Positions 35,773-52,269 of a stretch of DNA of 64,000 nt are shown piece by piece. This DNA is from an uncultured Planctomycetaceae bacterium (lineage in GTDB: Bacteria > Planctomycetota > Planctomycetia > Planctomycetales > Planctomycetaceae): NCBI GenBank assembly GCA_963813715.1, contig CAWFAK010000015.1, positions 67,008-131,007 of the forward strand, written 5' to 3'. A program made the translations under genes and the position numbers. The notes under the pieces are model-generated. The model made no database searches, was not told the origin of the DNA, and was given only the letters and a program-made list of their open reading frames with translations. The stretch's first letter is position 1; every line of letters starts with the position of its first letter.

Positions 35773-35876
35773 GCCGTCATTCTAGCGGCGGCGGTTGGAG
35801 TGCCAGACACCCAGGGATCATCGCGCAGGGTAGTGGGCGCGTTTGAAAAGCGAAAGTTGGCGATTGGCACGGGAGT

Positions 35877-36258
35877 TCACTTGCCTGTGAGCATCCCAAT
35901 TCCAAAAGCCATCGGGGCCAGCATCGTGATGCCGGCGACGGTTCGTCCCACTGCCACATGGTTTAGGCGACCAAGCATCAGGGCGACGAGAAACACGGCG
36001 AGCGCGGCACACTAACGGCGCCAAAGTGAAAAGGCCCCCTCTTGCTAGGCGTGTCTTCCAGTTACGTCGGGAGGGAACGTCCCGCGAGTACCAGCGGAAT
36101 GTGACGAAGACTGCGATCAACCACACGCCTATTCCAAGCGGCATCGCATCAAGCGGAAAGAGCACGGCGCCCGTGACGGCCGCCACCACAAGGAACGCGA
36201 CGCCGCCCACAACCGAGAGCAGTCCGCTCAACAATCCGGACTTCGGTTCGTCGTTCAT
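35877..36258 (-). CDS. Cassette: multi-TM protein (frameshift)
   Basis: MNDEPK start motif; hydrophobic; TGA in the end motif at 35877. Confidence 0.65.
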
Positions 36259-36278
36259 GCCGTCATGTCCCGTTGGCG

Positions 36279-36515
36279 TCAGAGCCGACCATGTCGTTTC
36301 ATTCGCTTGAGCAAGCTCTTCGTAATCACGTAACCCTCATGGTCTCCAATTACCGTGTCAACGCCACAGTGCGGACAAATCGTGGTCACCTCGCCCGTTT
36401 GTAGCGTGTCATCTTCGCCCATCCAATGCACGATTGCCGTTGGCGGAAAGATAGCGTAGCACGAGTAACACCCGCACAGCTCGCTCCCGCAAATGTCGTC
36501 GGAGTTTCCGCCCAT
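36279..36515 (-). CDS. Cassette: small Cys-rich (Zn-binding) protein
   Basis: CGCYSC...ICPHCGVD; TAGAATGACGGCATG start. Confidence 0.8.
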   Translation of the reverse strand: MGGNSDDICGSELCGCYSCYAIFPPTAIVHWMGEDDTLQTGEVTTICPHCGVDTVIGDHEGYVITKSLLKRMKRHGRL

Positions 36516-36536
36516 GCCGTCATTCTAGCGGCGGAT

Positions 36537-36676
36537 TGAACCGCTCCATAAACGTGCGGAGTGTCGAGTTGTTCCGCTCGACGTGCGACGTGCAGATCGT
36601 CCCAGCTCGCGTATCCCGCTGACATTGATCCGATCAGCCTGCACGAGCGGCGGCGGCGCGTCGCGGCCCGACTCGG
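36537..36676 (-). pseudogene. IS1-family transposase fragment
   Basis: Translates ESGRDAPPPLV...TICTSHVERNNSTLRTFMERF, matching the transposases in this window. Confidence 0.85.
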
Positions 36677-36785
36677 TGTGGCTCCGTTTCAGGAAAGTCA
36701 AAAGACGACACCACCCCCACCACGGTAGTGTCCGTGTTTGACACCGGGTTTTTGGCGATTGGCATGGGAGTTTGGGGGGCGCACG

Positions 36786-37001
36786 TCACAGCGGGAAAAG
36801 CAGGTTCCACACGTGGTCGAGAGGCCGATAAATGGGAATGGCCACGTTAATCAAAACCTTTGAACCGGTCCTGCGAAAGACGCGCATTGCCAGCCGTTCT
36901 ACAGGATCCTCCGAAGCCACGTACACAATAATCATCACGATCAGCCCGATCAGCCAAACCCAGGGCCGCAACCACGAGTGCTTATTCGGTTCGTCGCTCA
37001 T
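36786..37001 (-). CDS. Cassette: YxLSxxP-like membrane protein
   Basis: MSDEPN start; VYVASEDPV...IYRPL. Confidence 0.8.
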   Translation of the reverse strand: MSDEPNKHSWLRPWVWLIGLIVMIIVYVASEDPVERLAMRVFRRTGSKVLINVAIPIYRPLDHVWNLLFPL

Positions 37002-37010
37002 GCCGTCATG

Positions 37011-37190
37011 TCAGCGGTACAGCAAGATTGCAGCTGCCGCCCTCAGGATAGAGACCGCGCCCAGAGCGAGGATAAAACAGGTGAACGTGCCGGCCCGCTT
37101 CTTGGACAGCAATAGCCTGATGGGAATGGTCGCCAGCCCAATAAGGGCAAGCAAGATTCCAATCTTCATCGCGAGCCAATAAACGCTCAT
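37011..37190 (-). CDS. Cassette: two-TM protein
   Basis: MSVYWLAMK start within GAATGACGGCATG. Confidence 0.75.
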   Translation of the reverse strand: MSVYWLAMKIGILLALIGLATIPIRLLLSKKRAGTFTCFILALGAVSILRAAAAILLYR

Positions 37191-37194
37191 GCCG

Positions 37195-37293
37195 TCATTC
37201 TGGCTGTGAGTACCGGACAAAGACGACCGCCAGAATCGCCAAGCCGATCAGGGCGAGCACGAGCGCCTCGCGGCGATTGGGTAGTCGGATCAT
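37195..37293 (-). CDS. Cassette: 32-aa membrane peptide
   Basis: MIRLPNRREALVLALIGLAILAVVFVRYSQPE; stop is the TGA of the next motif. Confidence 0.65.
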   Translation of the reverse strand: MIRLPNRREALVLALIGLAILAVVFVRYSQPE

Positions 37294-37302
37294 GCCGTCA
37301 TT

Positions 37303-37579
37303 CTAGCGGGTCTCGAAGCGCGCCCAAGCGGCAAACGGTCCGAGCGACGGCGGAGTCCGTGGGGCTCGTCCAACTCCGCTTTGACACGAAAGGTAATGGA
37401 GCGTGATCGAAAGGTCGCGGGCCTTGCTGTAAGCCCTGTCAGCAGCCTGGAGCAGTTCGTCCGTGTGCGGAAAGCCCCGTGCGTCCATCCGCCGTCTCAC
37501 GCGCGCAGATATTGCACGTAGGCGCGAGCCGCGCGCCGATGGCGGCGACTTGGGCTGGCGTCAGGTCGTGGGAATCCAT
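37303..37579 (-). CDS. Cassette: small soluble hypothetical protein (frameshift)
   Basis: MDSHDLTPAQ start after a variant motif (TAAAAT); continues RRMDARGFP...LHYLSC in another frame. Confidence 0.55.
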
Positions 37580-37692
37580 GCCCGCAATTTTAGCGGCGGA
37601 TCCATTTGCGGGTGATTTCGAATTCAGGCACTACCCCCCCCGCAGGTAGTGGGGTCGTATCCTGGACGAAAAACGGCGATTGGCACGGGAGT

Positions 37693-38004
37693 TCAACGCA
37701 TCCAGCCGACAATCGCCCTGACTCCGGCGATGAGCACGAAAAGCACAACGAACCCGGCGATGCCGCATCCAATCAAACCCACTAGATACCGGAATCGGCT
37801 TGGCTTCGGCGCGCCAACCCGGCGCTCGATTACCACTAAGGCATTGAGGTCCTCAATGGCGCTCGTGCAACCCGCAGCAGCGAGCATGAGATCCCGCAGG
37901 CGCTGAAAGGACTCACGATTGCAAATCAGCATCAACTCGCCGCGCGTCTGCCCATGGCAAATCTCAATGCCGCCGGCGCTCCCTGCATCCGGTTCGTCGC
38001 TCAT
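37693..38004 (-). CDS. Cassette: protein with C-terminal TM
   Basis: MSDEPD start; stop in the end motif. Confidence 0.8.
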   Translation of the reverse strand: MSDEPDAGSAGGIEICHGQTRGELMLICNRESFQRLRDLMLAAAGCTSAIEDLNALVVIERRVGAPKPSRFRYLVGLIGCGIAGFVVLFVLIAGVRAIVGWMR

Positions 38005-38033
38005 GCCGTCACCTCAGCGATTGGCACGGGAGT

Positions 38034-38366
38034 TCAATCAAGCGATTCGAGCCATTGCGAGAAGATCTCCGCCCTAGACTCCGCTGATGGCGACTCAATT
38101 CCCTGAGCCTTCATCGCCTCGACCAGTTGCACGAGTAGTCGCCAATAACAGCGATGATCATCCTTGCGCTCAAACTGTCCAACGTCCCACACGGCACCGG
38201 CACCACCCCACATCGCGCCCGACGCCAATGCCGGCCCAATAGCCGTGCTGTCCCATTCCGCAATCGTCGCGACTGCGGCAACGTAATCGGCTTGCGGATG
38301 GTCGTTTCTGCGTAGGATCGCTTCGAGACGTCGCAGAATGGAAATCAGTGGCAGCCCGTCGCTCAT
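38034..38366 (-). CDS. Cassette: soluble hypothetical protein
   Basis: MSDG start after TAGAAT; WGGAGAVWD motif; stop in the end motif. Confidence 0.8.
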   Translation of the reverse strand: MSDGLPLISILRRLEAILRRNDHPQADYVAAVATIAEWDSTAIGPALASGAMWGGAGAVWDVGQFERKDDHRCYWRLLVQLVEAMKAQGIESPSAESRAEIFSQWLESLD

Positions 38367-38566
38367 GCCGTCATTCTAGCGGCGGATTCGGCGGGAATGA
38401 GACCGCCGCATTCAACGGCTGATCGATCGGCTGCAACGGGATGAGTAGTTTCACCAAGCGGGTGGGGTCGCATCGCGGTTATTTTTCAGTACCCCACTAC
38501 CCCGAAAGTGCGCCCCGCAGGTAGTGGGCGCGCATCCTGGACGAAAGTCGGCGATTGGCATGGGAG

Positions 38567-38917
38567 TTACGCGGCGCTTCGCACAGCGGGAGACAATATC
38601 CCAAGTATCCAGAACACCGCGAGTGCGGCAATCAACCACACGATTGGGTGCTTGATCGCCTCAAACAGAAGGGTGCGGCACTCGGAGAATGTAGCACGCC
38701 CGCGCCAATGACGGGCGAAATAGAAGCACCACAAGGCTGTGGCCGGCACCAGCACCAGAATCATTTGCCAAGGATCCTGGTGGGGCCAGCGGTAACGAAC
38801 CGGCTGCGGGGCGTCTATCCGTTCAATGAGAAATGCCGCCGTTGCGATGCAACAGAGTGCCAGACCCGCAGCTCCGATCAGCCCGCGAAGCCAGTTGTTG
38901 CCCCGTTCGTCGCTCAT
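38567..38917 (-). CDS. Cassette: three-TM protein
   Basis: MSDER start after TAGAAT; TAA in the end motif. Confidence 0.8.
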   Translation of the reverse strand: MSDERGNNWLRGLIGAAGLALCCIATAAFLIERIDAPQPVRYRWPHQDPWQMILVLVPATALWCFYFARHWRGRATFSECRTLLFEAIKHPIVWLIAALAVFWILGILSPAVRSAA

Positions 38918-38941
38918 GCCGTCATTCTAGCGGCGGACCGC

Positions 38942-39520
38942 TCAAATGAACTCGCGATACTTGCGCAGTTCGGCGGCCGTTTGAGGTAGTCCGTGTTTTT
39001 CGAGCGTGTCCGCGTATTCGTCTGCTGTTTTCGCGGGGCGCGTCAGGTTCGCTCGGCAATTCTTCGCGGCCGAAAGTGCGGCGGGGCGACACAGCTCAAG
39101 CTGACATACCGTGAAATCGTCTGTGTCGATCACTTCTACGCCATAGGTGGCGACGTATTCCGTCGGAAAATCCCTAGTGTTAAACGTGACGATGGCATCG
39201 GCATTCGACACAATCGCCGCCGCCAACACGTGTCTATCGTCCTGGTCTGGGAGATCAAGCGAGCCAACGAGTCGCTCGTGGCCCGTGACGATACAATCCG
39301 GGAAGCTTTCGTTCATCCGAGCCTTGAGGCGTTCGATCTTGCTCGGCTCAATATCTGGACGATTTTCGCGTAAGGCGCGAGTCCACTCGTCGTGTATTTG
39401 ATCGGTCCATCGAGGGCGAAAAAGATCTTCCGTCGCCATCCACAGAACAAGATCACGGACAGGAGCAGAGTAGAGAACGCAGGCGTCTAAAACGACTGTG
39501 AAACGGTTGGCGAAATTCAC
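38942..39520 (-). CDS. PIN-domain protein (putative toxin)
   Basis: VVLDACVLY, LPDQDDRHVLAAA, IVTFN.RDF. Confidence 0.9.
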   Translation of the reverse strand: MNFANRFTVVLDACVLYSAPVRDLVLWMATEDLFRPRWTDQIHDEWTRALRENRPDIEPSKIERLKARMNESFPDCIVTGHERLVGSLDLPDQDDRHVLAAAIVSNADAIVTFNTRDFPTEYVATYGVEVIDTDDFTVCQLELCRPAALSAAKNCRANLTRPAKTADEYADTLEKHGLPQTAAELRKYREFI

Positions 39521-39523
39521 TCA

Positions 39524-40000
39524 TTAGTACTCCAAACCCATTTCCTCCGATTCGGCCGTGATCCGTTTTAGCGTTTCTCGGCGCTCCGAATCGGCGCGGT
39601 GCTTGTGGGCCATCAAGTCCTTGAACAGGATTCTTCGATGGGACCCGACTTTACGATGTGGGATTTTTCCGCTCTCGATTAGGCCGATTAAGAATGGCCT
39701 GCTGACATTGAGGATGTCGGCCGCCTGCTGCGTTGTCAGCTCGGCGTGAATTGGAATAAATGTTACTGCGTTACCGCGAGCCATTTCCGACAGGATGTCA
39801 TTCAGGAGCAAGAAGGCGGACATCGGAATTTCTACGAATTCTTCATGTCCGCCGTCCGGCTCGAATCGAACCCCTACGTTGCGCGGCTGCACACGTGGGC
39901 TCCGAAAACGAGCCAACTTTTTTACCGATTCCTTCGCGAGCCTCTTGTCGTCATCAGACGGAAGGACGGCCTCGCGCGACTTGAGCACTCCGGCGCTCAT
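39524..40000 (-). CDS. Excisionase-type HTH protein (putative antitoxin)
   Basis: ELTTQQAADILNVSRPFLI.L...G.IP..KVG.HRRI; directly upstream of the PIN gene. Confidence 0.9.
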   Translation of the reverse strand: MSAGVLKSREAVLPSDDDKRLAKESVKKLARFRSPRVQPRNVGVRFEPDGGHEEFVEIPMSAFLLLNDILSEMARGNAVTFIPIHAELTTQQAADILNVSRPFLIGLIESGKIPHRKVGSHRRILFKDLMAHKHRADSERRETLKRITAESEEMGLEY

Positions 40001-40228
40001 TGCTAGGCCTCCGTAAGCACAAAAATGTTTTTCACCCTTGAAGCCAATCATCGACGTCGTACAATAATACTCCTTAATCGAAGCAAACGAAGCAAGCGAA
40101 ATAATCGCAATTTCGATAAACTCGCACAAATTGTTTATCCACAATGGTTTGTGCGCTAACCATTCCGGTCGATCCATGACCAGAAGTCCGACACGTCAGT
40201 GGTGGTGCCGCTCCCCCAATTCATGCCG

Positions 40229-40320
40229 GGAGAACGGCCCGCGTTTGGCGGCGCAGCAGCCTTATAACCTGCCGGAGGGGTCCGCGTACGCGCGGACGGG
40301 ATCGTAACCCCCTATCTCCG
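40229..40320. ncRNA. Conserved structured motif, copy 1 (also 43183-43281 and 47016-47108)
   Basis: Three copies with conserved blocks and a variable but base-paired internal hairpin. Confidence 0.5.
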
Positions 40321-40530
40321 CTTTTGGTGAGCAGCTTCGGCTAGCAGCCCACGGATAGCCTCCGTAACGGCAGCCGAGCGATTCCAGCCCCGTTTCCCCG
40401 CGAGCACGTCCAGACGGTCCACAAGCCCCGAGGGCACGCTAGCGGAGATGTTTACGGTCGGCCCCTCTTCGGGGTGAGCTGTCTTTCGCCCGGCTCCCTC
40501 ACGCTTGCCGCCATGCTGGCTTTTGGCCAT
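40312..40530 (-). CDS. Ribbon-helix-helix (CopG-like) regulator
   Basis: GGKREGAGRK...ISASVP...NRSAAVTEAI. Confidence 0.8.
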   Translation of the reverse strand: MAKSQHGGKREGAGRKTAHPEEGPTVNISASVPSGLVDRLDVLAGKRGWNRSAAVTEAIRGLLAEAAHQKRR

Positions 40531-40739
40531 TTCCCTGCCTCTTGAAAAACTCATACGAATCAAGTTGACATTCCCATTTGATTTTGTATGATAAATCAAG
40601 TCAGTGGTCAAGGCAAAGAAAAACCCCGGAAGGACGCCAATCCAACCGGGGCGAGAACAGACATCCGGGCGAACCCAGAATGCCAGTCCAGACAACTGCA
40701 TTCTACCACGGTTCGCCGCAGTCGAAAGAGGCGGTTCCC

Positions 40740-41669
40740 GTGGCCAACTTCATCAGTCGAGACAAACAGATTCAGGTTCTGCGGCTCTTGTCGGAAGGAA
40801 ACTCGATTCGTTCGGTCGTGCGGCTGACTGGAATCCACAAGAGCACGATCACGCGGCTCGTCGTGCGGTTCGGGAACGACTGCCGCCAGTACCTCGACTT
40901 CGCGATGGCCAATCTGAACCTCGACCACGTTCAGATTGACGAGATTTGGACGTTCTGCGGGATGAAAGAGGGACACGCCAAAAAGCGGCACCTCGATACG
41001 TCAGTCATCGGCGACCAGTACCTCTTCACGGCCCTCGACACCGAAACCAAGCTGTTGGTCACGTTCGCGATCGGCAAGCGCACTGCCGCCACGACAGAGG
41101 CGTTTATCGAGGATCTGTCGAAGCGGCTCTATCGCGGCCCCGAGGCGATCGGCGATGACCGCCCGCAGTTGAGCACCGATGGCTTCACGCCCTACGGGCC
41201 GGCGATCCGCAACCACTTCCACGGCACGGTCAAGCACGGCGTATTGATAAAGCAGTACCGCAACCCGGAAGTGGGCCGCTACGCTCCGCCGGACCTGACC
41301 GGAACCGAACGGTTAAACATCAACGGGATACGCGACCTGTCCACGATATGCACCAGCCACGTCGAGCGGAACAACTTGACGATCCGCACATTTATGCGAC
41401 GATTCACTCGGCTCGCGTTGGGCTTCTCAAAGAAGGTCGAGAACTTGGCCGCGGCCACGGCGATCCACGTTGCGGTCTACAATTTCTGCCGCATCCACTC
41501 TACGATTCGTTGCACCCCCGCAATGGCCGCCGGTGTCATCGATCGGCTGTGGGGCATGGGCGACCTGTTCGACGCGGTGACGGACCACGCGGCTCAGCTC
41601 AAAGCGAAGGCCCGTCGTGACCGCCGAATTCAGCGGCTGATCGACAGGCTGCGGAAAGAGGGACGCTAG
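40740..41669 (+). CDS. IS1-family DDE transposase
   Basis: N-terminal HTH (EGNSIRS), IDEIW, STDG, TSHVERNNLTIR, FSKK. Confidence 0.9.
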   Translation: MANFISRDKQIQVLRLLSEGNSIRSVVRLTGIHKSTITRLVVRFGNDCRQYLDFAMANLNLDHVQIDEIWTFCGMKEGHAKKRHLDTSVIGDQYLFTALDTETKLLVTFAIGKRTAATTEAFIEDLSKRLYRGPEAIGDDRPQLSTDGFTPYGPAIRNHFHGTVKHGVLIKQYRNPEVGRYAPPDLTGTERLNINGIRDLSTICTSHVERNNLTIRTFMRRFTRLALGFSKKVENLAAATAIHVAVYNFCRIHSTIRCTPAMAAGVIDRLWGMGDLFDAVTDHAAQLKAKARRDRRIQRLIDRLRKEGR

Positions 41670-41767
41670 GGCGGGCGCGTTTCGTGGTTATTTCAAACTG
41701 TCCCACTACCCGCCCCGCAGGTAGTGGGGTCGTTTGAAAAGCGAAAGTTGGCGGTTGGCACGGGAGT

Positions 41768-42007
41768 TCAAGTGAAACGTGACATCTGTGCCACGTACCA
41801 ATCAAAGAATGACCGCAGTGTGGTGGACTTGCTACACGCCCATTGAAGAGGGTCGTAGACCGTGTTTATGGTCTCGGTGCTGATACAGCCGCCGCTCCAA
41901 AGCAAATACGCCGGCCCGAGGCTCAAGAAATACAGGGCTGGAAGCGGCACGAGCGCCCAGCCGATCCAGCCCCACCACCGCCGTCGTTTCTTCGGTTCGT
42001 CGCTCAT
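41768..42007 (-). CDS. Cassette: YxLSxGP family membrane protein
   Basis: MSDEPK start after TAGAAT; LYFLSLGP...VYDPLQW; stop in the end motif. Confidence 0.85.
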   Translation of the reverse strand: MSDEPKKRRRWWGWIGWALVPLPALYFLSLGPAYLLWSGGCISTETINTVYDPLQWACSKSTTLRSFFDWYVAQMSRFT

Positions 42008-42277
42008 GCCGTCATTCTAGCGGCGCAGTTGAAGCCGACATTTAATGTTGCCACGATAAATGTGATTCGGGGCGTCTCTTTGGCTTGTGCGTAAGCTGTG
42101 TGGCCGTAGCATATTGAGGAAAGTGGGCAAATTTTCGTTCCAATCAGCCCGTCCCGTTCGTTTTATCTAATGGCGGTCGGGAGTGAGTGAAACAGCCGCC
42201 AAGGAGAACTGGGAGTGCTGGAAACGAACCAGGGATGTTTCGTTCCACGGGGTAAAAAACAGGGCACGGGTGCATCA

Positions 42278-42466
42278 ATGAACACGCGCGAACTGCTGGC
42301 CGCCTATGCAGATTTGCTCAACGCCCACGGAGTCGATTCCGAAGAGGCAAAGGAGTTCTTGGAAGCTAACCGCTTCCAGGAAGAATTCTACGACCTCGCC
42401 GTACTGTCGAAGAAGCTCAAAGCTGCGCTGACCTCGCCGGTGTGCGAGCAAGCCTGCAACAACTGA
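42278..42466 (+). CDS. Small hypothetical protein
   Basis: 62-aa helical ORF upstream of the sigma factor. Confidence 0.5.
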   Translation: MNTRELLAAYADLLNAHGVDSEEAKEFLEANRFQEEFYDLAVLSKKLKAALTSPVCEQACNN

Positions 42467-42570
42467 TTTTTGCGGTGGATTTCTAGCAGGGATGTTCGGC
42501 GCGCGACGGATTTAATGCGCGCCGTGTTGGCCAAGGAGGGCATCGTGGCAATGGACAAAGGGACGTGCGA

Positions 42571-43173
42571 ATGTCCGACACTGCCCCCCTTAAGCGATGG
42601 TCCGATGATCGAATCCTCCAAGAAGCCAGCCAGGGCAACGAAAGGGCGTTTGAGGTTTTCTGCGATCGCTCGTTGCCGTCGCTTTATCGCTACGTTCGGA
42701 ACCAATGCCGCAAGCGCGGCATTCCGGAAGACTTAGCGCAGGACTTCTGTCACGAAGCCGTGATCCGTGCGATCACGTGCATTCGCGGATGTGCAGCCGG
42801 CGAGATTCGCCCCTTTCCAAGCGTGTCCCAGGCTTGGTTAAAAAGGATCGCCGTCAATGTGCTAAAAGACTGGGGGCGCCGGGAGCGCCGGGTCGTTTTC
42901 GTCAAAGAACTTGAGATTGAATCGCGAACCGACGTTGCGCCTGAAGACGCTCTCGAAAGGGAGGAAATACTCAAGTTTTTTACTTGGCTTCCGGAACGCG
43001 AGCGAGACATGCTCGAACTCGTGTTCGTCAACGAGAAAACAATTGCCGAAGCTGGTGCCCAGCTAAACATCAGCCACGCCAACTCCTATAAGGTGTTTCA
43101 GCGAGCCTTGGAATTACTTCGGGATCTCCTCGCTGAACACGGCCATATGCCGCAACGGTCTGAGACGGATTGA
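42571..43173 (+). CDS. ECF-type sigma-70 factor (passenger gene)
   Basis: AQDFCHEA, AWLKRIAVN...D..RR, LPERERDML...TIAEAG. Confidence 0.8.
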   Translation: MSDTAPLKRWSDDRILQEASQGNERAFEVFCDRSLPSLYRYVRNQCRKRGIPEDLAQDFCHEAVIRAITCIRGCAAGEIRPFPSVSQAWLKRIAVNVLKDWGRRERRVVFVKELEIESRTDVAPEDALEREEILKFFTWLPERERDMLELVFVNEKTIAEAGAQLNISHANSYKVFQRALELLRDLLAEHGHMPQRSETD

Positions 43174-43289
43174 GTCCGTCCCGGAGAGCGGTCCGCGTTT
43201 TGGGGGGCGCAGCAGACTTATACCCTGCCGGAGGAGTCGGACCACGGAAGGTTCCGATGGGATCGTAACCCCCGCTCTCCGCCTTTTCT

Positions 43290-43469
43290 TTAGCGCGCCT
43301 TTCGCGCCGCTGCCTTCAGCAGCACGTCCCTAGCCCAGGTTGACGTATTCCCTTGCGCGGCTGAATCCAAGGCTTCGCGTTCGCCTTCTGTGAGGCGGAT
43401 GCGCAGCTCGGAATCCCGCCTCTCTTCGTCCGTCTTCGGCGGACGGCCCCGCTCTCGCTTGTCTTCCAT
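43290..43469 (-). CDS. Ribbon-helix-helix regulator (59 aa)
   Basis: RGRPPK...LRIRLTEGEREALDSAA...STWARDVLL; same position as the other RHH genes. Confidence 0.75.
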   Translation of the reverse strand: MEDKRERGRPPKTDEERRDSELRIRLTEGEREALDSAAQGNTSTWARDVLLKAAARKAR

Positions 43470-43662
43470 GAATTTATCGTAGCAACAATATTTTTCGGTT
43501 TCAAGGCTTGAACCACTGTTTATTGTTGCTACAATAAATGTCGTGATGAAAACCCCGTCGTGCTGATAACACGGCGGGGCGAACTACAACCAGGCGTTTC
43601 CGCTGATTGCAGTCTAGGCAACTTCATTTTAGCGGATTCGTCGCAGACGAGTGAGCGAATCC

Positions 43663-44592
43663 GTGGCCAATTTTCTCAGCCGCGACAGACAGATCCAGGT
43701 TCTGCGCTTGCTATCAGAGGGCAATTCGATCCGCTCGACAATGCGCCTCACAGGCATCGAGAAGAAAACCATCACGCGGATCGTGGTCAGGTTCGGCAAC
43801 CAGTGTCGGCAGTACCTCGATTTCGCGCTGTCGAACCTCAACCTCGACCACGTTCAAATCGACGAAATTTGGACGTTCTGCGGAATGAAAGAAGGGCGCG
43901 CCAAGCGGCGGAAGCTGGACACGTCGGTCATTGGCGACCAGTACCTCTTCACCGCTCTCGACACCGAAACCAAGTTGCTGGTCACGTTCGCTGTAGGCAA
44001 GCGTACGGCGGCCACGACTGAGGCGTTTATCGAGGATCTGTCCAAGCGGCTCTACCGCAGCCCCGAGGCAATCGGCGACTATCGGCCGCAGTTGAGCACC
44101 GACGGGTTTACTCCCTACGGGCCGGCGATCCGCAATCACTTCCACGGGACGGTCAAGCACGGCGTTTTGATAAAGCAGTACGTTAATCCGGATGTCGGCC
44201 GCTACGCGCCTCCGGCGCTGGTCGGGACCGAGCGATTGAACGTCAACGGCATACGCGACCTGAGCACGATATGCACATCGCACGTTGAGCGGAACAATCT
44301 GACGATCCGCACGTTTATGAAGCGGTTTACTCGGCTGGCCCTGGGCTTCTCAAAGAAGCAGGGCAACCTTGCCGCCGCGACCGCGATCCACGTTGCGGTT
44401 TACAACTTCTGCCGCATTCACAGCACGATCCGATGCACACCCGCGATGGCTGCGGGAGTGATTGATCGCTTGTGGGGCATGGGCGATCTCTATGACGCTG
44501 TGACGCGGCACGCGGCAGAGGTCACCGCCAAGCTGAGCCGGGATGCCAAGATCGCGAAGCTGATCGAGAAATTGAAGAGGAGCGAACCCTAA
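43663..44592 (+). CDS. IS1-family DDE transposase
   Basis: Close paralog of 40740-41669 with the same catalytic motifs. Confidence 0.9.
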   Translation: MANFLSRDRQIQVLRLLSEGNSIRSTMRLTGIEKKTITRIVVRFGNQCRQYLDFALSNLNLDHVQIDEIWTFCGMKEGRAKRRKLDTSVIGDQYLFTALDTETKLLVTFAVGKRTAATTEAFIEDLSKRLYRSPEAIGDYRPQLSTDGFTPYGPAIRNHFHGTVKHGVLIKQYVNPDVGRYAPPALVGTERLNVNGIRDLSTICTSHVERNNLTIRTFMKRFTRLALGFSKKQGNLAAATAIHVAVYNFCRIHSTIRCTPAMAAGVIDRLWGMGDLYDAVTRHAAEVTAKLSRDAKIAKLIEKLKRSEP

Positions 44593-45119
44593 TTGCAGGC
44601 TCGGGCGACATCATTCATAAACGCAGCCGCTTGGATTTGGATATTTTCCCTTGGCGTCTCATTGCTCGGCGGCCACGCGGAAATGTCGACCTGTGGCCTC
44701 ATGCCAGCAAGTCGAAAAAGCTCGTTGAAGAGATCGCCCGACAGCCGGACGGTCAGCTCCGGACTGGTTGTCCGAAAGCGGCCATCTGGATTATCCATCG
44801 CCCTGAGCGCCCCAGTACGATCGTTCTCGTGCATTCGCCCTTGGAACAGTTCGTATCGGAGTTTGAGTTCGGCACAGATGCGAAGGCGCTGGTTGATATC
44901 ACGCGCACGTTGCTCGTCAGCTTGTCGCCGGTTGTCTTCAGCGCGCTGTTCTTGTTTTTCTTGCTTGGCCTTGTGTTCCTTCCAAATGTCCCACGGAATC
45001 GGGGACAAGAACCCAGCGATCAAGAGTCCCAGGAATGCGACGATAGCAATCTTGTCAGGCATGGATCGCGCCTGAAACCAAGCCCAAAGTCTTGCTAACC
45101 GAACGACGAGCCGACCCAC
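44589..45119 (-). CDS. Membrane-anchored hypothetical protein
   Basis: N-terminal TM followed by coiled coil. Confidence 0.55.
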   Translation of the reverse strand: MGRLVVRLARLWAWFQARSMPDKIAIVAFLGLLIAGFLSPIPWDIWKEHKAKQEKQEQRAEDNRRQADEQRARDINQRLRICAELKLRYELFQGRMHENDRTGALRAMDNPDGRFRTTSPELTVRLSGDLFNELFRLAGMRPQVDISAWPPSNETPRENIQIQAAAFMNDVARACN

Positions 45120-45131
45120 GTTTAATCTCGC

Positions 45132-45867
45132 CTACTGGAACGGGAAGCATGGGATTTGCTTCCACTCCGTTTCGCCTTTGTGCCAGACGAACATTTTGCC
45201 GTTGTCCTCGTCGTAGGCAATAACCGAGTCGGCATTTCCGCTGAATTTCAGTCTGTCCTTCCCCGGGGGGCAATTGTTTCGACATGGGGTACATCCACCC
45301 TGCTCGGACGAAGGGCGGGGAGTACGCGAGTCCGGACCTGGGACTCGATGTGGTGGAGAAGGCTCTGGGTTCGCGTTTCCGGTTGTCCCCCCTGGGCAGA
45401 ACTCTTTCCCGTCCTTGATCACGGCGAGGGAATACCCTGCGCGTTCTCTTTGAGCCGGATTGTCTTGGCGTCCGCCAAGCTGATGTTCTGGGTGAGCCCC
45501 CGGCGATCGATTGGAACAAGTTTGTAGTCGTGCCATTCTCCGTCGCAGCAACACTCGCGACACGGAGCCTGGGGAATTGGAGCCACGCAGGAGGAGCAGC
45601 CGGAGCCTGAAAGGCTGGTGCAGGCCATGCCTGAGCCGGTGCAACGGATGGCATGCCTCCGCCGTACCATGGCCCGGCTGCGGGCTGTTGCACGCAACTG
45701 AGTTGCGCCCCTACATATTGAGGTGTGCAAATTGGTCCGCACGTCCCGTAGCACGGTGGCGTGCAGCAGCATCCGCATGGTGGGCAGCATCGCGGGCAGT
45801 CGTAAAAGCCGCAGCATCCCGTCGCCCCCGCAACGAGGGCGGGGACTAATAACGCGATCCATCGCAT
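45132..45867 (-). CDS. Cys-rich putative lipoprotein and/or downstream hypothetical protein (boundaries uncertain)
   Basis: MRWIALLVPALVAGATGCC...CPRCCPPCGCCC; overlapping frame ends at 45132. Confidence 0.4.
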
Positions 45868-46147
45868 TGGGGAAGGCCTGTTTTGTGAGGCGGAGCGCGA
45901 GACAGGCGAGATGGGGCGGACAGTCCCTCTTCGGCAATCTGTAACGCCAGCCTTGAACGGGATCGCCGAACGTTGCTGACTTGTTAAAGTTTGATTGAAG
46001 TCCCATTGGTGTTTTCACCCCCTGGGTGGGGTCGTTTGGTTTTATTTCAAAGTACCCCACTACGGCGGTGTCTCCGTTTGAAAACTGAATTGTGCTGATT
46101 GGCACGGGTTTTCATTCGGGACGCTGCCCCTAGTGGGGGTAGTGGAG

Positions 46148-46417
46148 ATGACTAATGAAGAAATCGGGCGCTGGATCGACGATCCGGCCGCACGTGAAGT
46201 GATCCTGAAATTTGTCCGCAATGTGGCGGGCGAACCGAACCTCGACTGGAGTGGTCTTGTCGAGGCTTTGGAGCATCCCGACGAATACGATTACGGTCGC
46301 GAGCTATCCGCCCCTATTCGCGCTCTTTGGTCGCGCATGGACACGGGCGAGAGGGTGGTCGCCATGATTATTTGTGAGCAGCTTGCGAATTGGCGGCGTC
46401 TGACTGCGCTTTCTTGA
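46148..46417 (+). CDS. Hypothetical protein
   Basis: GGAG RBS directly before ATG; 89 aa. Confidence 0.5.
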   Translation: MTNEEIGRWIDDPAAREVILKFVRNVAGEPNLDWSGLVEALEHPDEYDYGRELSAPIRALWSRMDTGERVVAMIICEQLANWRRLTALS

Positions 46418-46991
46418 TGGCCGCCATCACCCGCGCACCTGAAGCAGCCGACATGATTTTCGTGTAGGCGTTGCACAGCTCTCCTGACAGCAAATAAGCG
46501 GCGCACATGAACAGATTTCTCGCGGGAGTGCGCCTCTTAGTCATTCGCGCCCAAACTCTCACCGCCTTCGGAAACCGTTCTGAATTCTTTTTCTGCTCCG
46601 GAGACAGTAGGTCGAAAATCGAGTGTGCGCGTTCCATGTTCAAGGTTACGGAGCCTGGATGGTGCGCGAAATGGTTTCGCAGCTCATTTAGCTTGACCAT
46701 TGCTTGGAAGGTATGGCTGTCGATCGCGAGCAAAACCCGAGCCACAACCAGCTTCACGTAAAAGGATTGGAGCGGTGGCTGCGGCCCATCTTTTAACAGC
46801 CACGCAATTAGCGAATCTGTCTCACCAGATTCCGCATGGAGCTTAGCCCAGAGCACGTCCCCTAGCAGCCCATCACAATATCCGTGCACCGCCAGCACGC
46901 ATCCGCGATCGGATTCGTCGAGTCCGATCGTCTCCCAGAAGCGCCACCCGCCAATGTCGGGCTCGGTGAGCTTCTTGCGTCTTTTTGACAT
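46368..46991 (-). CDS. MtlR/HEPN-like protein
   Basis: ESDRGCVL...PLQSFYVK...LNELRNHFAH (RxxxxH). Confidence 0.65.
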   Translation of the reverse strand: MSKRRKKLTEPDIGGWRFWETIGLDESDRGCVLAVHGYCDGLLGDVLWAKLHAESGETDSLIAWLLKDGPQPPLQSFYVKLVVARVLLAIDSHTFQAMVKLNELRNHFAHHPGSVTLNMERAHSIFDLLSPEQKKNSERFPKAVRVWARMTKRRTPARNLFMCAAYLLSGELCNAYTKIMSAASGARVMAAIKKAQSDAANSQAAHK

Positions 46992-47099
46992 CGGGACTCT
47001 CTATACGCGCGCTTCGGAGAACGGCCCGCGCCTTGGCGGCGCAGCAGCTTTATACACTGCCGGAGGGGTCCGTGCGCTCACGGATGGGATCGTAACCCC

Positions 47100-47319
47100 C
47101 TATCTCCGCTTTTGGCGTCCAGCGCTTGCCAGAAGCCCACGGATGGCCTCCGTGACGGCCTCTGAGCGGTTCCACCCGCGCCTTGTCGGCCCGCGCGTCT
47201 AGACGCTCCATGAGGCTTTCCGGCACAGTAGCACCGATGTTTATCGTCGGACCCTCTGGATTAATTGGCTTGCGCCCGGCCCCCTCCCGTTTGCCTCCGT
47301 GCCCTGTCGTTGGGGTCAT
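47100..47319 (-). CDS. Ribbon-helix-helix regulator (frameshift)
   Basis: Paralog of 40312-40530 (GGKREGAGRK...NRSEAVTEAIRGLLA). Confidence 0.75.
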
Positions 47320-47356
47320 TTTTCCCGCCTTGTTGAAATAATTATACAAATTCAAC

Positions 47357-47385
47357 TTGCCACGCACATGTTGAATAAATATAAT
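47357..47385 (+). promoter_or_regulatory. Sigma-70 promoter for transposase 3, overlapped by palindromic operators
   Basis: TTGCCA-17 bp-TATAAT; two GTTGAA...TTCAAC palindromes. Confidence 0.7.
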
Positions 47386-47530
47386 GTATTCAACGACGTC
47401 CGACAAGGGCAACAAAAAACCCCGCCGGTGCTGAAACACAAGCGGGGCGACAAAACATCCAGGCGAACCTGAATGCCGTCTAGGCAACTGCATTCTACCA
47501 CGGTTCGCCGCAGTCGAAAGAGGCGGGACC

Positions 47531-48465
47531 GTGGCGAATGTTTTGAAGCGGGACAAGCAGATTCAGGTTCTCAGGCTGCTGGTCGAAGGTAACTCGATTC
47601 GCTCGACCGAACGGATTACCGGGATCAGCCGCAACGCGATCATGCGACTCTTGGTGCGGTTCGGAACCGCTTGCCGCGAATTCCTAGACCTGAACCTCAG
47701 CAACCTGCATCTGGAGCACGTCGAGATCGACGAGATTTGGACGTTCGTTCGCAAGAAGCAGCGGAAGCTGCACGGGTTCGAGATCATCGATCCAGAAATC
47801 GGCGACATTTACTTGTTCACGGCGCTCGACCAATCCACGAAGTTGCTGGCGTCGTTCGCGATCGGGAAGCGGAACAACCAGACGACGCAAGCGCTGATCC
47901 GCGACCTGGAGAGCCGGATGGTCCGCCGGCCGGACCACAGCGGGGCCGAACGCCCGCAACTTTCGACCGATGGATTCAACACCTACCCCGGTGCGATTGC
48001 GGAGCGGTTCGGGTCGTCCGTGAAGCATGGGGTTTTGATAAAGCAGTACCGCAATCCAGAGTCGGGCCGATAGCGCCCCCGGATCTGATCGGCACCGAGC
48101 GGATCGCGGTCCAGAACATCACCGATGTGACCACGATATGCACGTCGCACGTCGAGCGGAACAACCTGACGATCCGCACGTTTATGAAACGGTTCACGCG
48201 CCTCTCGATGGGCTTCAGCAAGAAGCTAACGAACCTCGCCGCGGCGGCCGCGCTCCAGATCGCCCACTACAACTTCTGCTGGCGGCTGCGTCAGCCGGGG
48301 AAGAGCGGACAGCGGACCCCGACGCCCGCGATGATGGCGGGGCTGGTCGAGACGCTGTGGACGATCGAGGATCTGTACGATGCCGTGATGAAACAGCAGG
48401 CCGACAAGAAGCACGCGGCCCGCGTTGCAAAACTTATTGACCGTCTGCGACGAGAAAAGCTATAA
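47531..48465 (+). CDS. IS1-family DDE transposase (frameshift near 48070)
   Basis: IDEIW and STDG in the first frame; TSHVERNNLTIR in the second. Confidence 0.88.
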
Positions 48466-48684
48466 TCATGGGAACAAGGACGGGGCCTAGTCGCAACGGA
48501 AGCGACAAGAAGTGAGAAGCATAACGGCCCGTCGAACGCGAGTGCGTTCAACAGGCCGTTTTTTTGTTGGATGAGGGGAGGGGCCGGATCCGGCAGACTC
48601 TCTCATTAGGAACAACTGTCTCGGCGGACGGTCTCATTAGCCGCAACCGTCGCACAAGATTCGGTTCTCTCCCTCCATCTCAGC

Positions 48685-48723
48685 GCCCGACGGTCCACTG
48701 ACACTGGATCGTCGGGTTTTTTT
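48685..48723 (+). terminator. Rho-independent terminator
   Basis: GCCCGACGGTCCA / TGGATCGTCGGGT stem followed by a T-run. Confidence 0.65.
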
Positions 48724-48863
48724 GTTTCGACCGCTGTCGATCTGCGGTTGAGTTTAACAGCGTCAGGCGAAAACAGTCAATATGAGTTTGTTACTTATGA
48801 GCCAATGACTTAGGATGAAAACGACACGAGATTGCCACCAAACGTTCGGTTGGCTTTTACAGA

Positions 48864-49388
48864 ATGTCGCTCGTCGCCCAATACGTCGCCGTCAGTAACA
48901 GGCGAGTGACGATCCCCCAGAATATCGCGACTGAGCTGCCCTGGATACCCACCGGGAAGAAGGGGGATCCAACTATAGAGTGCATCGCTCTGCACGGACC
49001 AGCGGGCGGGATTCAAATCGATCGGCCCGACGGAGAACTGGCAGCGCGACGAAATGATTTCTTGCGGCAGTTTTCGGCCGCAGAAATTTCGCCGCTCGAA
49101 GCCGCCGAGGACTGGATGCACCTAGCGCGATTCTATGCAGCCAGTTGGACAATTAGCCTGACGTCGGACGTCAGCTCTAAGCGATTCACGCTTCCGGCTG
49201 AGATGCTTGAGACCGGACTTCTTGGCCCTGGCGTGCCGCGCGTAGTCCTGTTGTTCGCTGCTCGTGGGATTCTTGAAATGTGGGGTGCCGAGCAATGGGA
49301 AAATTACCAAGCGAAGATCGCGAATAGGGCCGCCCACCTGCACGCAGAATCTGTCGCCGATCTCGAACGCCGGGGTGGCTCCGTTTGA
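48864..49388 (+). CDS. MraZ-like (SpoVT/AbrB) protein
   Basis: Duplicated RRVTIP / KRFTLP motifs and GILEMW. Confidence 0.6.
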   Translation: MSLVAQYVAVSNRRVTIPQNIATELPWIPTGKKGDPTIECIALHGPAGGIQIDRPDGELAARRNDFLRQFSAAEISPLEAAEDWMHLARFYAASWTISLTSDVSSKRFTLPAEMLETGLLGPGVPRVVLLFAARGILEMWGAEQWENYQAKIANRAAHLHAESVADLERRGGSV

Positions 49389-50358
49389 GAAAAGTCAAAA
49401 GACGACACCACCCCCACCCGCCCCGCATAATTCTCAAATCCCAACTGTCCATTAACACTCCTCTAACCGGCCTATCGCTGTTGACTGTCAGGGGTTGGGG
49501 CGAGGTCGATGGTTGCGTTGAGCCTAGCGGTCACCGGGGAGTTGCGTGGCTGGGAATCATTTTAAGGCTGTTCCGAAATTGAAGTTGCGGCCGACCGCAG
49601 TGCACTAACTTTCTTCGCGTTTCCTTGACCCAACGCTCGTAGAGGTTAGAATTTCGCTGTTCTCAATCGCTGCACGGACGCGGGACTTTCCTGAACGTCT
49701 GTTGACTTGCCCGGCTCATCGTCCGGGCAAATCAGTTAGTACTCGGCAATCCGCTGGATGACCGGTTGTCGAGGATGGTTGATTCGGCCTGATCCTGGCA
49801 CCGACGGAAGCCAGCTCCTACGATTCGTTGGCGGCTTCGAGTTTCGGTCCGGACGCCTGTGAGTTGGTTGCACGAGTAGATCACCGAGCGCTCGACGCAC
49901 GCTGTCGACCGACGGTGGAACCGGCACGGAGTTGATCGCCAAAAGTTGATGGCAGAACGAGCTCGCGCTGGGCTCGATTTCCAAAACATCACCAACTTCA
50001 ACGCATCACCGACTTCAAACGAATCCGTAGCCGGAAATCAGCAGCAACCGGCTTCCCGCACAGACCCTTCGTGGAACCCTCATCCCCAGTTTGCTGGCAT
50101 TGAGTGCTGCTTGCATCCCGCGATTCCGGGCCAGGACCGCAATACCGACAAGATACGGCCCGACCAACGACGGCCGCACGAACATAACGCCGCACGAACA
50201 TAACACGGTAACAACACCAGACGGTCAGCAGTCGGCAATCCAGATTTCGAGACTCAACGACCCCAGAAGTAAAGCCTCAGCCAGCAGCGAAGGCCCTTAA
50301 GTCACCGCCCGTTTCGGGCCTTGTTCGCCAGCAGAATTTCGGCAATCAGGAGTCGCGC

Positions 50359-52269
50359 GTGTCGTCCGGTGATCGGTCCGATTTCAAAGAGCTCGTCCGC
50401 GCTCGGACCGACATCGCGCAGCTGATCGGCGAGCGCGTGACCTTGCAATCGCGGATGGGCGGACGCGAGCTGGTTGGACTGTGCCCCTTCCACGACGATC
50501 ACAACCCGTCGCTGCGAGTGTATGCCGACCGGCAGTCGTATAAGTGCTGGTCCTGCGGCGAAGGGGGCGATTGCTTCGCCTTCGTGCAGAAGACCGAAGG
50601 GGTCGACTTCCGCGACGCGCTCGAATTGCTGGCGACGCGGGCGGGCCTCGAGATTCCCAAGAGTAGTGGGCCGGGCGGAGACGGGAGAGGATCCGACGGC
50701 AAGCCGACGCGGAAAGAACTCTTCGACGTCTTGAAGTGGGCGGAGAGCGAGTTTTATACCTGCCTCAAAACCTCGTCCGAGGCGAAGGCGGCCCGCGAGT
50801 ATCTTGCGTCGCGCAATTTCAGCCCCGAGACGATCGAAAAGTTCCGCCTGGGCTACGCTCCGATCGAGGGGCAATTTTTACAACGTCGCGGGCGCGATCG
50901 TTTCAATTCGGCACAACTTGCCGCCGTGCGCCTGATCTCCCCGCGTAGCGAGAGTGACGGATATTACGAATATTTCCGCGGCCGCGTGGTGTTTCCCATC
51001 CGCGACGCCTCGGCTCGCACCGTTGCGTTTGGGGGACGCGTGGTGCCGGGCGTCGGTTCGCCCGACGCACCCAAATACCTGAATAGCGCCGACAGCCCGC
51101 TCTTCGCAAAGAACAAGGTAGTCTTTGCTTTGGACGTGGCACGGCCCGCCATCGCCGGGCGCGACTCGTGCGTGGTGATGGAAGGGTATGCCGATTGCAT
51201 CATGGCTCATCAGTTTGGGATTTCCCACGCGGTCGCAACACTAGGCACGGCTTTGACTGAAAACCACGTCGGAGTCCTCAAGCGATTCACCCGCAAGGTG
51301 GTGCTCGTCTTCGACGGAGACCAGGCCGGCCGCGACGCGGCGGAAAAGTCGCTTCCTCGTTTTCTTTCCCAGGACGTCGACTTGAGGATCCTGACACTGA
51401 CGACCGCCAAGGACCCGGCCGACTTCCTCACCGAGCACGGTGCGGAAGCCTTCGGCGCGCTGCTCGATTCGGCTCCCGAGGCCTGGGAATACAAGCTACG
51501 CTTGAGTATCGAACGCCACGGCCTGGCTTCCATCGATGCGCGGGAGCAGGTGGTGGCCGAGATGCTGGAGCTGTTCCGTCAGTCTCCGCGATTCAACGGA
51601 TCGGCCCGTGAGAACATCGTTCTCAACCGGCTGGCCTTCCGCGTCGGGCTGACGGAGACGCGAATCCGCGAGATGCTGGCGGCGGGCCGACGGAAATCGG
51701 CGCAGGCCCCGCGCGTCTCCGGTGTTCAAAATTACGACAAGTCGATTCAAATCCACGAGAATCGCCCTTCACGGCAGGTCGCCCCGACGAGCGCCCGAGG
51801 CAAGCTCGAACGCGAACTGCTGGAATGCGTGATCGCCGATCCGGCGGCATTTCCCGCCGTGCAAGCGGTCGTCGTGGTCGAGGACTTCGAGGACGAGGCC
51901 CACCGCCGGTTATTGGCGTTGTGTTACCGCGTGGCAGAATCGGGCATGTCCCCCTCGTACGAAAATCTGATTGCCGGCACCGAAGAGGCCGACCTCAAGG
52001 GCCTGCTCGTCACGCTCGAGACGACGTCCCGGGCCAAGGTGCAAACGCTGCGGCTCGACGGCCCCCAGGCGGCCATCGCCGCTCAGCAGGCCCTACTCAC
52101 AGACAGCTTGCGGCTTTGGAAGCACCGGGCCGAAACGCACGCGGTTTCGGTCGAGCGGCTGGCTTCCCAGAACGAATCTTCGGGCACGTTCGACGCGGCC
52201 CAACGCGACCACCTGCGACGCGCCATGGAAATTCACGGCGAGCGCGCAAGAGCGAACACCACGACTTGA
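50359..52269 (+). CDS. dnaG: DNA primase
   Basis: CPFH..CWSC zinc finger, PKYLNS, EGYAD, FDGDQAG, KDPAD. Confidence 0.97.

Follow-up and report, generated by a model that had tools for sequence, protein, structure and literature searches.

IS1-family transposons with cargo genes are a known kind of element; what is new is that one group of them inserts at a fixed distance from a landmark upstream of dnaG and stacks there, a targeting on which our literature searches found no paper. The window, a 64-kb stretch of contig CAWFAK010000015.1 from an uncultured Planctomycetaceae bacterium, holds such an array directly on the upstream side of dnaG. The insertion site is fixed, two registers are used, one element end faces the site, the duplicated bases vary, and the enzymes found there are associated with a single clade carrying a C-terminal tail; growth next to the site and decay of the older units are partly shown. 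On balance we favor a safe-harbor model, in which this tailed clade is directed to a conserved landmark beside the dnaG-rpoD promoter. IS1 is the textbook insertion sequence of low specificity, and a natural branch with one safe site, a 309-residue enzyme and no helpers provides a minimal model for the evolution of target choice, with the tail as a directly testable candidate determinant. The elements also offer a compact site-specific integration tool for planctomycetes, for which few genetic tools exist.

A landmark upstream of dnaG and two insertion registers

The features on the dnaG side of the array are:

49429-49453 (scored start 49432), + strand: conserved host landmark of about 20 bp, by profile match
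49624-49652, + strand: putative sigma-70-type promoter of the dnaG-rpoD operon, by motif match; -35 box 192 bp beyond the start of the landmark
50359-52269, + strand: dnaG, DNA primase (Pfam DNAG_N, Zn_ribbon_DnaG, Toprim)
49419-49427, + strand: near-register target duplication, 4 bp before the landmark (the 9-mer of the preliminary description)

An rpoD-like gene, named from its translation, directly follows dnaG. The landmark profile was present in 54 of 67 dnaG upstream regions, and in 44 of these 54 loci the landmark lay 190-193 bp upstream of the -35 box, exposing a rigidly spaced, previously undescribed putative regulatory region upstream of dnaG-rpoD. The landmark is unique in the host genome, the dnaG copy having the top profile score of 38.2 against 24.6 for the next; the profile was not found in the two dnaG loci from outside the family that were examined.

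Exact end motifs within 60 bp of the landmark fell at 11-13 or 22-23 bp in 27 of 29 cases (13 genera), that is, in a near and a far register about one helical turn apart, and the same element end nearly always faced the landmark, the exception being one genome (L098) with the opposite end. The ends stand at fixed distances and nearly always with the same end first, so arrays mostly grow on the landmark side. Ten of the loci with an exact end (26 in all) had been picked because an element or genus array was present, and genomes that are related do not count as independent. Among 40 dnaG loci fetched blind to their upstream DNA, a sample enriched for genomes with an IS1-type transposase, 32 had the landmark and 10 an in-register end, against 0.02 expected. 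A pattern scan of all prokaryotes, covering part of the end subtypes, returned 61 matches; dnaG lay downstream in 16, of which 15 were in register and 11 were loci counted before, and the 42 matches outside Planctomycetota were evenly spread across 4-32 bp. Metagenomes gave 9 of 10 matches in register (permitted range 6-34).

The preliminary description had proposed a GC-rich 9-mer as the repeated target. Repeated insertion at one site upstream of dnaG is borne out, but not the 9-mer as its address: the duplicated bases vary among species, yet agree on both sides of the proximal element, and since they differ while the distance to the landmark is fixed, the 9-mer is a target duplication. Other candidate addresses were set aside. 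A left-flank motif, an 8-bp match between a spacer and repeat-element sites, is absent at most dnaG sites. The position relative to dnaA is inconstant in five complete genomes, which speaks against the replication origin or terminus; in one of the genus genomes (G003, 40 samples of 20 kb) the best two-switch fit to GC skew explains about 13% of the variance, leaving too much noise for the terminus to be located. A role of the landmark as a regulon site was also set aside, the next-best genome matches being weak, one of them intragenic and one near a sigma-factor gene.

Composition and junctions of the array

Three cargo elements with a transposase gene, the only units to have one, lie nearest dnaG (E1-E3), followed by six decayed units:

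33457-49412: IS1-family array
46064-49412, + strand: element E1, 3349 bp, nearest the landmark; inserted in the far register into E2's right end
47531-48465, + strand: E1 transposase, with a one-base frameshift near 48070
48864-49388, + strand: E1 cargo, MraZ-like protein (Pfam PF02381, E 0.004, below cut-off)
46368-46991, - strand: E1 cargo, family not assigned (no Pfam match, no meaningful NCBIfam match)
46133-46417, + strand: second E1 open reading frame
47016-47110, + strand: E1 tRNA-like cloverleaf
41720-46063, + strand: element E2, 4344 bp, near-register insertion; right end lost one base
43663-44592, + strand: E2 transposase, intact, 309 aa (PF03400, 34.1 bits, over cut-off)
42565-43173, + strand: E2 cargo, ECF sigma factor
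43185-43283, + strand: E2 tRNA-like cloverleaf
41768-42007, - strand: E2 leaderless small membrane-protein gene, terminating at the left end
41711-41719, + strand: target duplication at the E3/E2 boundary
38520-41710, + strand: element E3, 3191 bp, near-register insertion
40740-41669, + strand: E3 transposase, intact, 309 aa; helix-turn-helix (HTH) at the N-terminus, DDE core, C-terminal helix at residues 273-307
40312-40533, - strand: ribbon-helix-helix (RHH) gene in E3, divergent from the transposase (PF01402, over cut-off)
40228-40322, + strand: E3 tRNA-like cloverleaf
38942-40000, - strand: E3 cargo, HTH_17 and PIN-domain pair, toxin-antitoxin-like
38567-38917, - strand: E3 leaderless small gene
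38502-38519, + strand: 18-bp spacer, a copy of native pre-landmark DNA left by a far-register, then a near-register event
37645-38501, + strand: unit E4, 857 bp, both ends, without transposase; small genes 37693-38004 and 38034-38366
36724-37635, + strand: unit E5, 912 bp, both ends, small genes only
35829-36715, + strand: unit E6, 887 bp, with a transposase relic in inverted orientation (36538-36674) next to two small genes
33457-35828, + strand: three decayed units, left ends at 33457, 34577 and 35118 with leaderless small genes; right ends not recognizable
32892-33427, no strand assigned: distal-edge repeat, 94% identical to C5:445480-446018, likely a rearrangement breakpoint

The five right-end/left-end junctions reported earlier (36715/36724, 37635/37645, 38501/38520, 41710/41720 and 46063/46064) were all recovered, as was the recurring 9-mer, identical at 38511-38519, 41711-41719 and 49419-49427 and with one mismatch at 37636-37644. 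The Poisson chance of three such 9-mers in 16 kb is about 0.002 (genome frequency 231 copies), a figure that ignores that every copy abuts a transposon end. An array had been placed at 37636-49427; it exists but its limits had to be moved, given the further left ends at 33457, 34577, 35118 and 35829 and an outermost right end at 49412 instead of the implied 49418 (27 of 29 bases match the right end at 36715). The 46063/46064 junction had been read as lacking a spacer; in fact the newer element cut into the final bases of its neighbor's right end, and the duplication from this event is found again beyond 49412, there with 4 nt deleted (15 of 15 aligned bases identical). The single orientation ascribed to all units applies to their ends, which share their outer bases and 11-17 of 20 bases between left and right, but not to the relic in E6; several transposase genes in relatives are also inverted relative to the element ends.

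The spacer at 38502-38519 is identical at 17 of 18 positions to the DNA preceding the landmark in a metagenome locus (L223). That at 37636-37644 does not follow from elements simply arriving one after another; a block transfer, or an exchange between alleles by recombination, is needed to account for it. The E1 frameshift is possibly an assembly error; a short-read contig across 48006-48441 has no substitutions and one gap, whose position is not listed. The unassigned E1 cargo protein has a 52% identical homolog in a related element, and the MraZ-like protein has atlas neighbors at 0.80, taken as a lead only. Rfam and ARAGORN scans of the array found nothing, the tRNA-like cloverleaves included.

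The transposase clade and its distribution

The array transposases match PF03400 at 37.4 and 34.1 bits (cut-off 24.1), and the best NCBIfam match, transpos_IS1, scores 61.8 bits, short of the model's cut-off of 100. Residues D67, D147 and E209 are invariant across 67 homologs, and the fold matches DDE transposases and integrases. A DDE transposase, terminal inverted repeats and target duplications of 8-9 bp place the elements in the IS1 family, whose terminal repeats are about 20-25 bp long with characteristic outer bases. The classical IS1 group has low target specificity and prefers AT-rich DNA, in contrast to the fixed site and GC-rich duplications seen here. The elements match the features of the ISMhu11 group, which we take to comprise single-ORF, passenger-carrying IS1-family members with an HTH and no zinc finger: they have a PF03400 transposase, an N-terminal HTH without zinc finger, IS1-type ends, 8-9 bp duplications and flanking cargo, but differ in their fixed-distance landmark targeting, asymmetric ends, polar tandem stacking and extra C-terminal helix. 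The insA/insB two-ORF layout of classical IS1 (PMC8944449) and its zinc finger are absent, the enzyme being a single 309-aa frame that begins with the HTH.

A tree of 47 transposases, restricted to sequences with about 230 or more aligned residues, has one clade of 17 (98/97) that consists entirely of tailed enzymes and contains 12 of the 13 from dnaG sites. The tail is an extra basic amphipathic helix, its hydrophobic and basic positions kept in 63-67 of 67 homologs. As clade and tail go back to one evolutionary event, the association of either with targeting counts as one correlation only. L095 and L066, long-tailed but placed outside the clade, proved to be read-through artefacts of broken genes. 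RNA-guided targeting was rejected because scattered as well as targeted elements have the tRNA-like gene (14 cases, 6 of them outside the tail clade), and the RHH gene as targeting factor because it, too, is present in elements that are scattered (L038, L050).

Ends or arrays are present at the dnaG site in seven of the nine other members of the genus that were examined, as well as in another 12 genera; outside the Planctomycetaceae none of 285 genomes of the phylum had a transposase match at E 1e-70. The proposal that the array grows in place is supported; landmark-side growth is clear in four genus arrays (the window, G003, G006 and G009), but not in G004 or G011. Five different left neighbors among nine genus members mark the site as a rearrangement breakpoint. 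Whether homologs are scattered singly depends on their relatedness: close ones are concentrated at the dnaG site, and the distant, tail-less ones sampled are mostly single, at unrelated sites. Tail-clade elements also occur off-site, in repeat elements that are weakly landmark-like and at unrelated places in two loci (L032, L090).

Positioning, growth and decay

Most likely the transposase is positioned by a putative landmark-bound host protein, as in the dif-hunting IS1202 elements: the spacing of landmark and promoter is rigid even in genomes without any element, so that a host protein probably occupies the landmark. The same rigidity speaks against the transposase reading the landmark DNA itself, without a host protein, by its basic tail helix or a second HTH and cutting at two helical registers. 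This reading, which we consider unlikely, could explain why the tail is rich in conserved basic residues, why the landmark core resembles an internal part of some right-end subtypes, and why two secondary sites (L094, L208), neither with a dnaG promoter, have the core in the far register. Across genera, however, the tail's hydrophobic face is conserved better than its basic residues, and of 79 copies of the 9-bp core in the host genome 78 are unused, an element end adjoining the dnaG copy only, which indicates that context or a bound protein matters.

The preliminary description had also suggested that the elements target their own ends, which in an IS30/IS911- or IS26-like form would leave the landmark merely to seed the first insertion. 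Several junction spacers do copy a right end (7 of 8 bases at 36716-36723), head-to-tail pairs exist at repeat-element sites (L074) and in one tail-less element (L099), and end-targeting is documented for IS3, IS30 and IS26 members (PMC7986276). Yet in-register ends occur in 13 genera with differing duplications and often no older element adjoining, insertions into older ends sit at the landmark's far register, and internal array ends are seldom used, as intact elements are mostly landmark-proximal; own-end targeting is therefore at most secondary, and improbable as the main cause. Very improbable, in our judgment, is a loose specificity for bent or accessible intergenic DNA combined with selection that purges promoter insertions and leaves an apparent hot spot. 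The highly variable, often mobile-looking genes upstream of the landmark would fit it, as would the influence of nucleoid proteins on IS1 target choice (PMC8944449), but it cannot yield two sharply defined registers separated by 10 bp with one end inward, nor do tail-less relatives in the same genomes gather at the site (1 of 30 lies 7 kb upstream). An assembly artefact of repeated copies is largely refuted and scarcely credible. The genome is metagenome-assembled and one apparent frameshift resembles a read error, but the three transposase genes are only 66-80% identical, so that collapsed repeats are impossible; the architecture recurs in independent genomes and metagenome contigs, and short-read contigs from other samples bridge the 37635/37645 and 49412 junctions, with no spanning piece among the matches listed for 38501/38520, 41710/41720 and 46063/46064. 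The sequencing runs contained 5-12% of the region's words, as contigs in every case.

In the safe-harbor model, a candidate host protein complex would sit on the phased DNA upstream of the dnaG-rpoD promoter, with the landmark (49432-49453) as its outer edge, and the transposase would be placed there, probably via its extra C-terminal helix, cutting 12-13 or 22-23 bp outside the landmark and duplicating any 8-9 bp found there. Since the landmark would survive insertion, every newcomer would land beside it, between it and the previous element, and push older elements away. Displaced elements would lose their transposase and right end, probably via adjacent deletion from the neighbor's left end, and rows of left ends with leaderless small genes would remain; the bound host factor, the tail's part in targeting and the adjacent deletion are what we infer. 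More tentatively, the 20-25 residue helix may be a tether to a putative host regulator upstream of the promoter, making the locus an integron-like gene-capture platform across the Planctomycetaceae: cargo would enter at a fixed point, enzymes decay and small leaderless membrane-protein genes stay, while broken-off halves seed orphan small-gene arrays elsewhere in the chromosome, and the element's activity may be gated by its tRNA-like gene, which matches rare isoleucine codons of the transposase. The transposase is a candidate enzyme behind the genus-wide small-gene arrays.

Several known systems share parts of this behavior. Integrons are likewise polar arrays of small accessory genes growing at one end beside a fixed site, but the units here are bounded by IS ends and duplications, and their genes have their own leaderless starts; no tyrosine recombinase matched within the window, the nearest lying about 70 kb from the array. 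Head-to-tail arrays with cargo are formed by IS26 and by targeted insertion of IS30 and IS911 (PMC7986276), which require a resident copy of the same IS, whereas the elements here, though diverged (59-87% amino-acid identity), meet at a landmark of the host. Tn7 and Tn7-like att-site elements insert at a defined distance from an essential, conserved locus and build islands serially, but need TnsABC with TnsD/TniQ and show target immunity (PMC11014353); here stacking is routine, and none of these families was found among the element ORFs scanned. Ty1, Ty3 and Tf1 find safe havens upstream of promoters, where their integrase contacts a host factor bound to the DNA (PMC5371812), but are eukaryotic LTR retrotransposons with many target genes, as opposed to a bacterial DNA transposon with one main locus and a presumed tether. 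IS1202-family elements of the ISAjo2 group, hunters of pdif/dif, have one DDE enzyme with a helical C-terminus, use no helpers and insert 5 bp away from bound XerC, all in one orientation, with direct contact to the host protein proposed (PMC10132070). They differ in their TnsB-like enzyme of 441-457 aa, Tn7-like outer ends, 5-bp duplication and dif target, as against a 309-aa IS1-type enzyme, 8-9 bp duplications, a landmark upstream of a promoter, two registers and long arrays; tandem arrays are not mentioned in the main text of that study (PMC10132070). Compared by eye with dif, the outer parts of the landmark resemble the XerC/XerD arms, with the arms 3 bp closer and the inner arm bases not kept.

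The landmark upstream of dnaG and its registers

The IS1-family system whose elements stand upstream of dnaG in the window is real, family-wide, site-specific and polar. Element ends lie at fixed distances from a conserved sequence, here called the landmark (around 49432-49453 in the window), either at 11-13 bp (near register) or at 22-23 bp (far register), with distances measured between an end's last base and the first base of the landmark (49432 in the window). A 22-bp landmark profile, constructed initially on 12 sites, was present in 54 of 67 dnaG upstream regions (two loci with less than 70 bp of upstream DNA having been dropped from the set), and in 44 of these 54 loci the dnaG promoter has its -35 box 190-193 bp after the landmark start. 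The landmark is unique by profile score in the host genome, G000 (best score 38.2, next 24.6), where its 9-bp core occurs in 79 copies. Because it is retained in genomes without any element, the landmark is a host feature. Between it and the promoter (window 49432-49652), further boxes follow at steps of about 43 bp, with a rigid spacing conserved across the family.

Within 60 bp upstream of the landmark, the exact end motif was found 29 times, at 26 loci in 13 genera, and 27 of these occurrences are at 11-13 or 22-23 bp; the two off-register ends are at 19 bp in the window, owing to a 4-nt deletion, and at 51 bp elsewhere. Forty dnaG loci fetched without sight of their upstream DNA, a set enriched for genomes with an IS1-type transposase, showed the landmark in 32 cases and an in-register end in 10, against 0.02 expected. 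A pattern scan of 185,579 genomes gave 61 matches: dnaG was downstream in 16, of which 15 were in register and 11 were loci already counted, and for the 42 matches outside the Planctomycetota the distances were spread over 4-32 bp. In a metagenome scan, 9 of 10 matches were in register. The site and its registers are observed directly; tethering of the transposase there is an inference. A literature search, with most subscription papers outside its reach, found no publication describing IS1-family elements that target the region before dnaG, nor any on targeting by this family in planctomycetes.

On its right side the array borders on DNA that is conserved across the genus. Of the nine other members examined, seven show a right end at the corresponding position together with an array of like polarity; at the dnaG site of G005 and G008 there are just decayed left ends and small genes. 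The duplicated 8-9 bp vary between species yet match on either side of the proximal element, and are therefore positional. Across the Planctomycetaceae, a left-end search combined with co-location of the transposase (48 of 201 genomes) with dnaG (191 of 201) revealed the same arrangement in other genera. Three stacked elements sharing one repeated spacer are seen in G128, and in one genome (L098) a left-type end faces the landmark. At five loci (L021, L026, L027, L030, L032) the transposase gene runs in either direction relative to the end types, the ends keeping their landmark polarity. At three loci from two genera (L139, L067, L117), the bases from the far-register duplication to the landmark resemble the opening 10-14 bases of a transposon end. 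A single Sedimentisphaerales record (L199) has, upstream of dnaG, a tail-less-type IS1 end at a distance of 7 bp from the landmark core.

Structure and probable growth of the array in the window

The preliminary description had placed five end junctions in a head-to-tail array, and all five coordinates were borne out. With the two asymmetric termini named left and right as drawn on the + strand, an end profile located nine left ends in the window (33457, 34577, 35118, 35829, 36724, 37645, 38520, 41720, 46064) and six right ends (36715, 37635, 38501, 41710, 46063, 49412). The three elements adjoining dnaG, E1 (46064-49412), E2 (41720-46063) and E3 (38520-41710), contain IS1-family transposases (PF03400), with a DNA identity of 66-80% between them, and differ in cargo (an MraZ-like gene in E1, an ECF sigma factor in E2 and an HTH-PIN pair in E3). 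Further left, E4-E6 retain both ends and have no transposase, and of the two ends the leftmost three units retain the left one alone. Behind nearly every left end are one to three minus-strand small genes, which have a leaderless start in common. The frameshift in the E1 transposase is possibly a read error: over 48006-48441 a short-read contig agrees with the window except for one gap, whose place is not listed. Contigs from other samples bridge the junctions at 37635/37645 (two runs) and at 49412 (one run, no differences); among the pieces listed, none bridges the remaining three.

In the metagenome locus L223, a far-register right end is followed by a native stretch of 18 bp, to which the window spacer 38502-38519 is equal in 17 of 18 bases; given this match, the right end at 38501 would originally have occupied the far register. 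Near-register insertions of E3 and, later, of E2 would have come next, duplicating the 9-mer each time (49419-49427, 41711-41719, 38511-38519), and E1 would have followed at the far register, within the right end of E2. The spacer 37636-37644 implies that E5 too was formerly at the near register, a position that this order leaves unaccounted for and that block transfer of E4-E3 or recombination between alleles would fit. Transposases are intact proximal to the landmark and fragmented farther out in the window as well as in G003, G006 and G009; this pattern is absent from G004 and G011.

The right ends at 46023-46063, 41669-41710 and 49371-49412 carry the terminal repeat a second time, in inverted orientation and about 41 bp in from the end, giving a small palindromic unit. 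Cargo genes at 36279-36515 and 38034-38366 (minus strand) encode two small soluble proteins with no match in Pfam or NCBIfam; one of them is cysteine-rich, and the other resembles, by eye, immunity-type proteins. The left neighbour of the dnaG array is of five different kinds among nine genus members. In the window, an ExbB/TolQ-like gene with glycine-rich proteins lies to the left (24864-30525), several of its frames appearing broken, and such a cluster is likewise the left neighbour in G007.

The transposase clade and secondary targets

The predicted transposase structure (pTM 0.80) shows an HTH and a DDE core and closes with a long helix. A tree of 47 transposases contains a clade of 17 (support 98/97) in which the conserved tryptophan is followed by 31-38 residues, compared with 7-24 in intact enzymes outside it. 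This tail has a conserved hydrophobic face with basic residues flanking it, and an indel of 4 residues is tolerated. Of the 13 enzymes at the dnaG site, 12 belong to the clade, and its remaining members are an enzyme from a repeat site and four more: L094 has a landmark-like core at the far register, L091 comes from a genome with its dnaG site on a different contig, and no landmark was seen at the insertion places of L090 and L032. Tail-less elements with both flanks readable (e.g., L044, L058, L060, L061, L062) are single, with 8-bp duplications at unrelated sites; L099, tail-less yet tandem, is an exception. Because one clade represents one event, the association between tail and targeting is a correlation, not proof.

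Four further left ends in G000 are at one position of a repeat of about 200 bp, two of them with a matching 9-bp duplication. Tandem repeats of this kind, with a fixed core as secondary target, lie at the following places in that genome:

C5:657-658 kb, tandem repeats
C5:557 kb, tandem repeats
C7:437 kb, tandem repeats
C8:490 kb, tandem repeats
C17:728 kb, tandem repeats

The repeat core has 295 copies in G000, 4 with an end and 23 of the subtype beside the two intact insertions. Related repeat sites are occupied in G002, G003, G006 and G009, and their outer flank bears only a weak likeness to the landmark, at the far register. A second head-to-tail array, far from dnaG in G005 (L052:9300-17800), has spacers derived from ends and an inserted transposase of another family; no IS1 transposase match was found there.

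tRNA-like genes and small-gene arrays

Each of E1, E2 and E3 carries, upstream of the transposase, a tRNA-like gene with a predicted anticodon for the rare A-ending isoleucine codon:

40228-40322, + strand, tRNA-like cloverleaf
43185-43283, + strand, tRNA-like cloverleaf
47016-47110, + strand, tRNA-like cloverleaf

The cloverleaf occurs in 14 elements, with compensatory change in 7 of 27 pairs. The codon itself is used in the transposase at residues 170, 197 and 203, that is for 3 of 23 isoleucines as against 1.1% in the genome; a strict search detected no cloverleaf in many elements carrying this codon cluster.

The inner left-end motif lies at most 1.5 kb downstream of 29 of 56 leaderless starts in G000, compared with 17 of 2000 random windows; the profile was trained on the window, outside which the count is 17 of 42. 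In an orphan array at C5:441-444 kb, one portion shares 83-95% identity with the distal part of the G002 dnaG array and has the same host flank. Based on this likeness, the left-end motifs and the five kinds of left neighbour, at least some leaderless small-gene arrays are relics or broken-off parts of these IS1-family elements. The inner left-end motif (e.g., 41751-41770) provides or directly adjoins the stop codon of the neighbouring small gene at 16 of 56 starts, and bears a loose resemblance to a sigma-54 promoter. A tRNA-Leu gene is present at 63912-63999, at the contig end.
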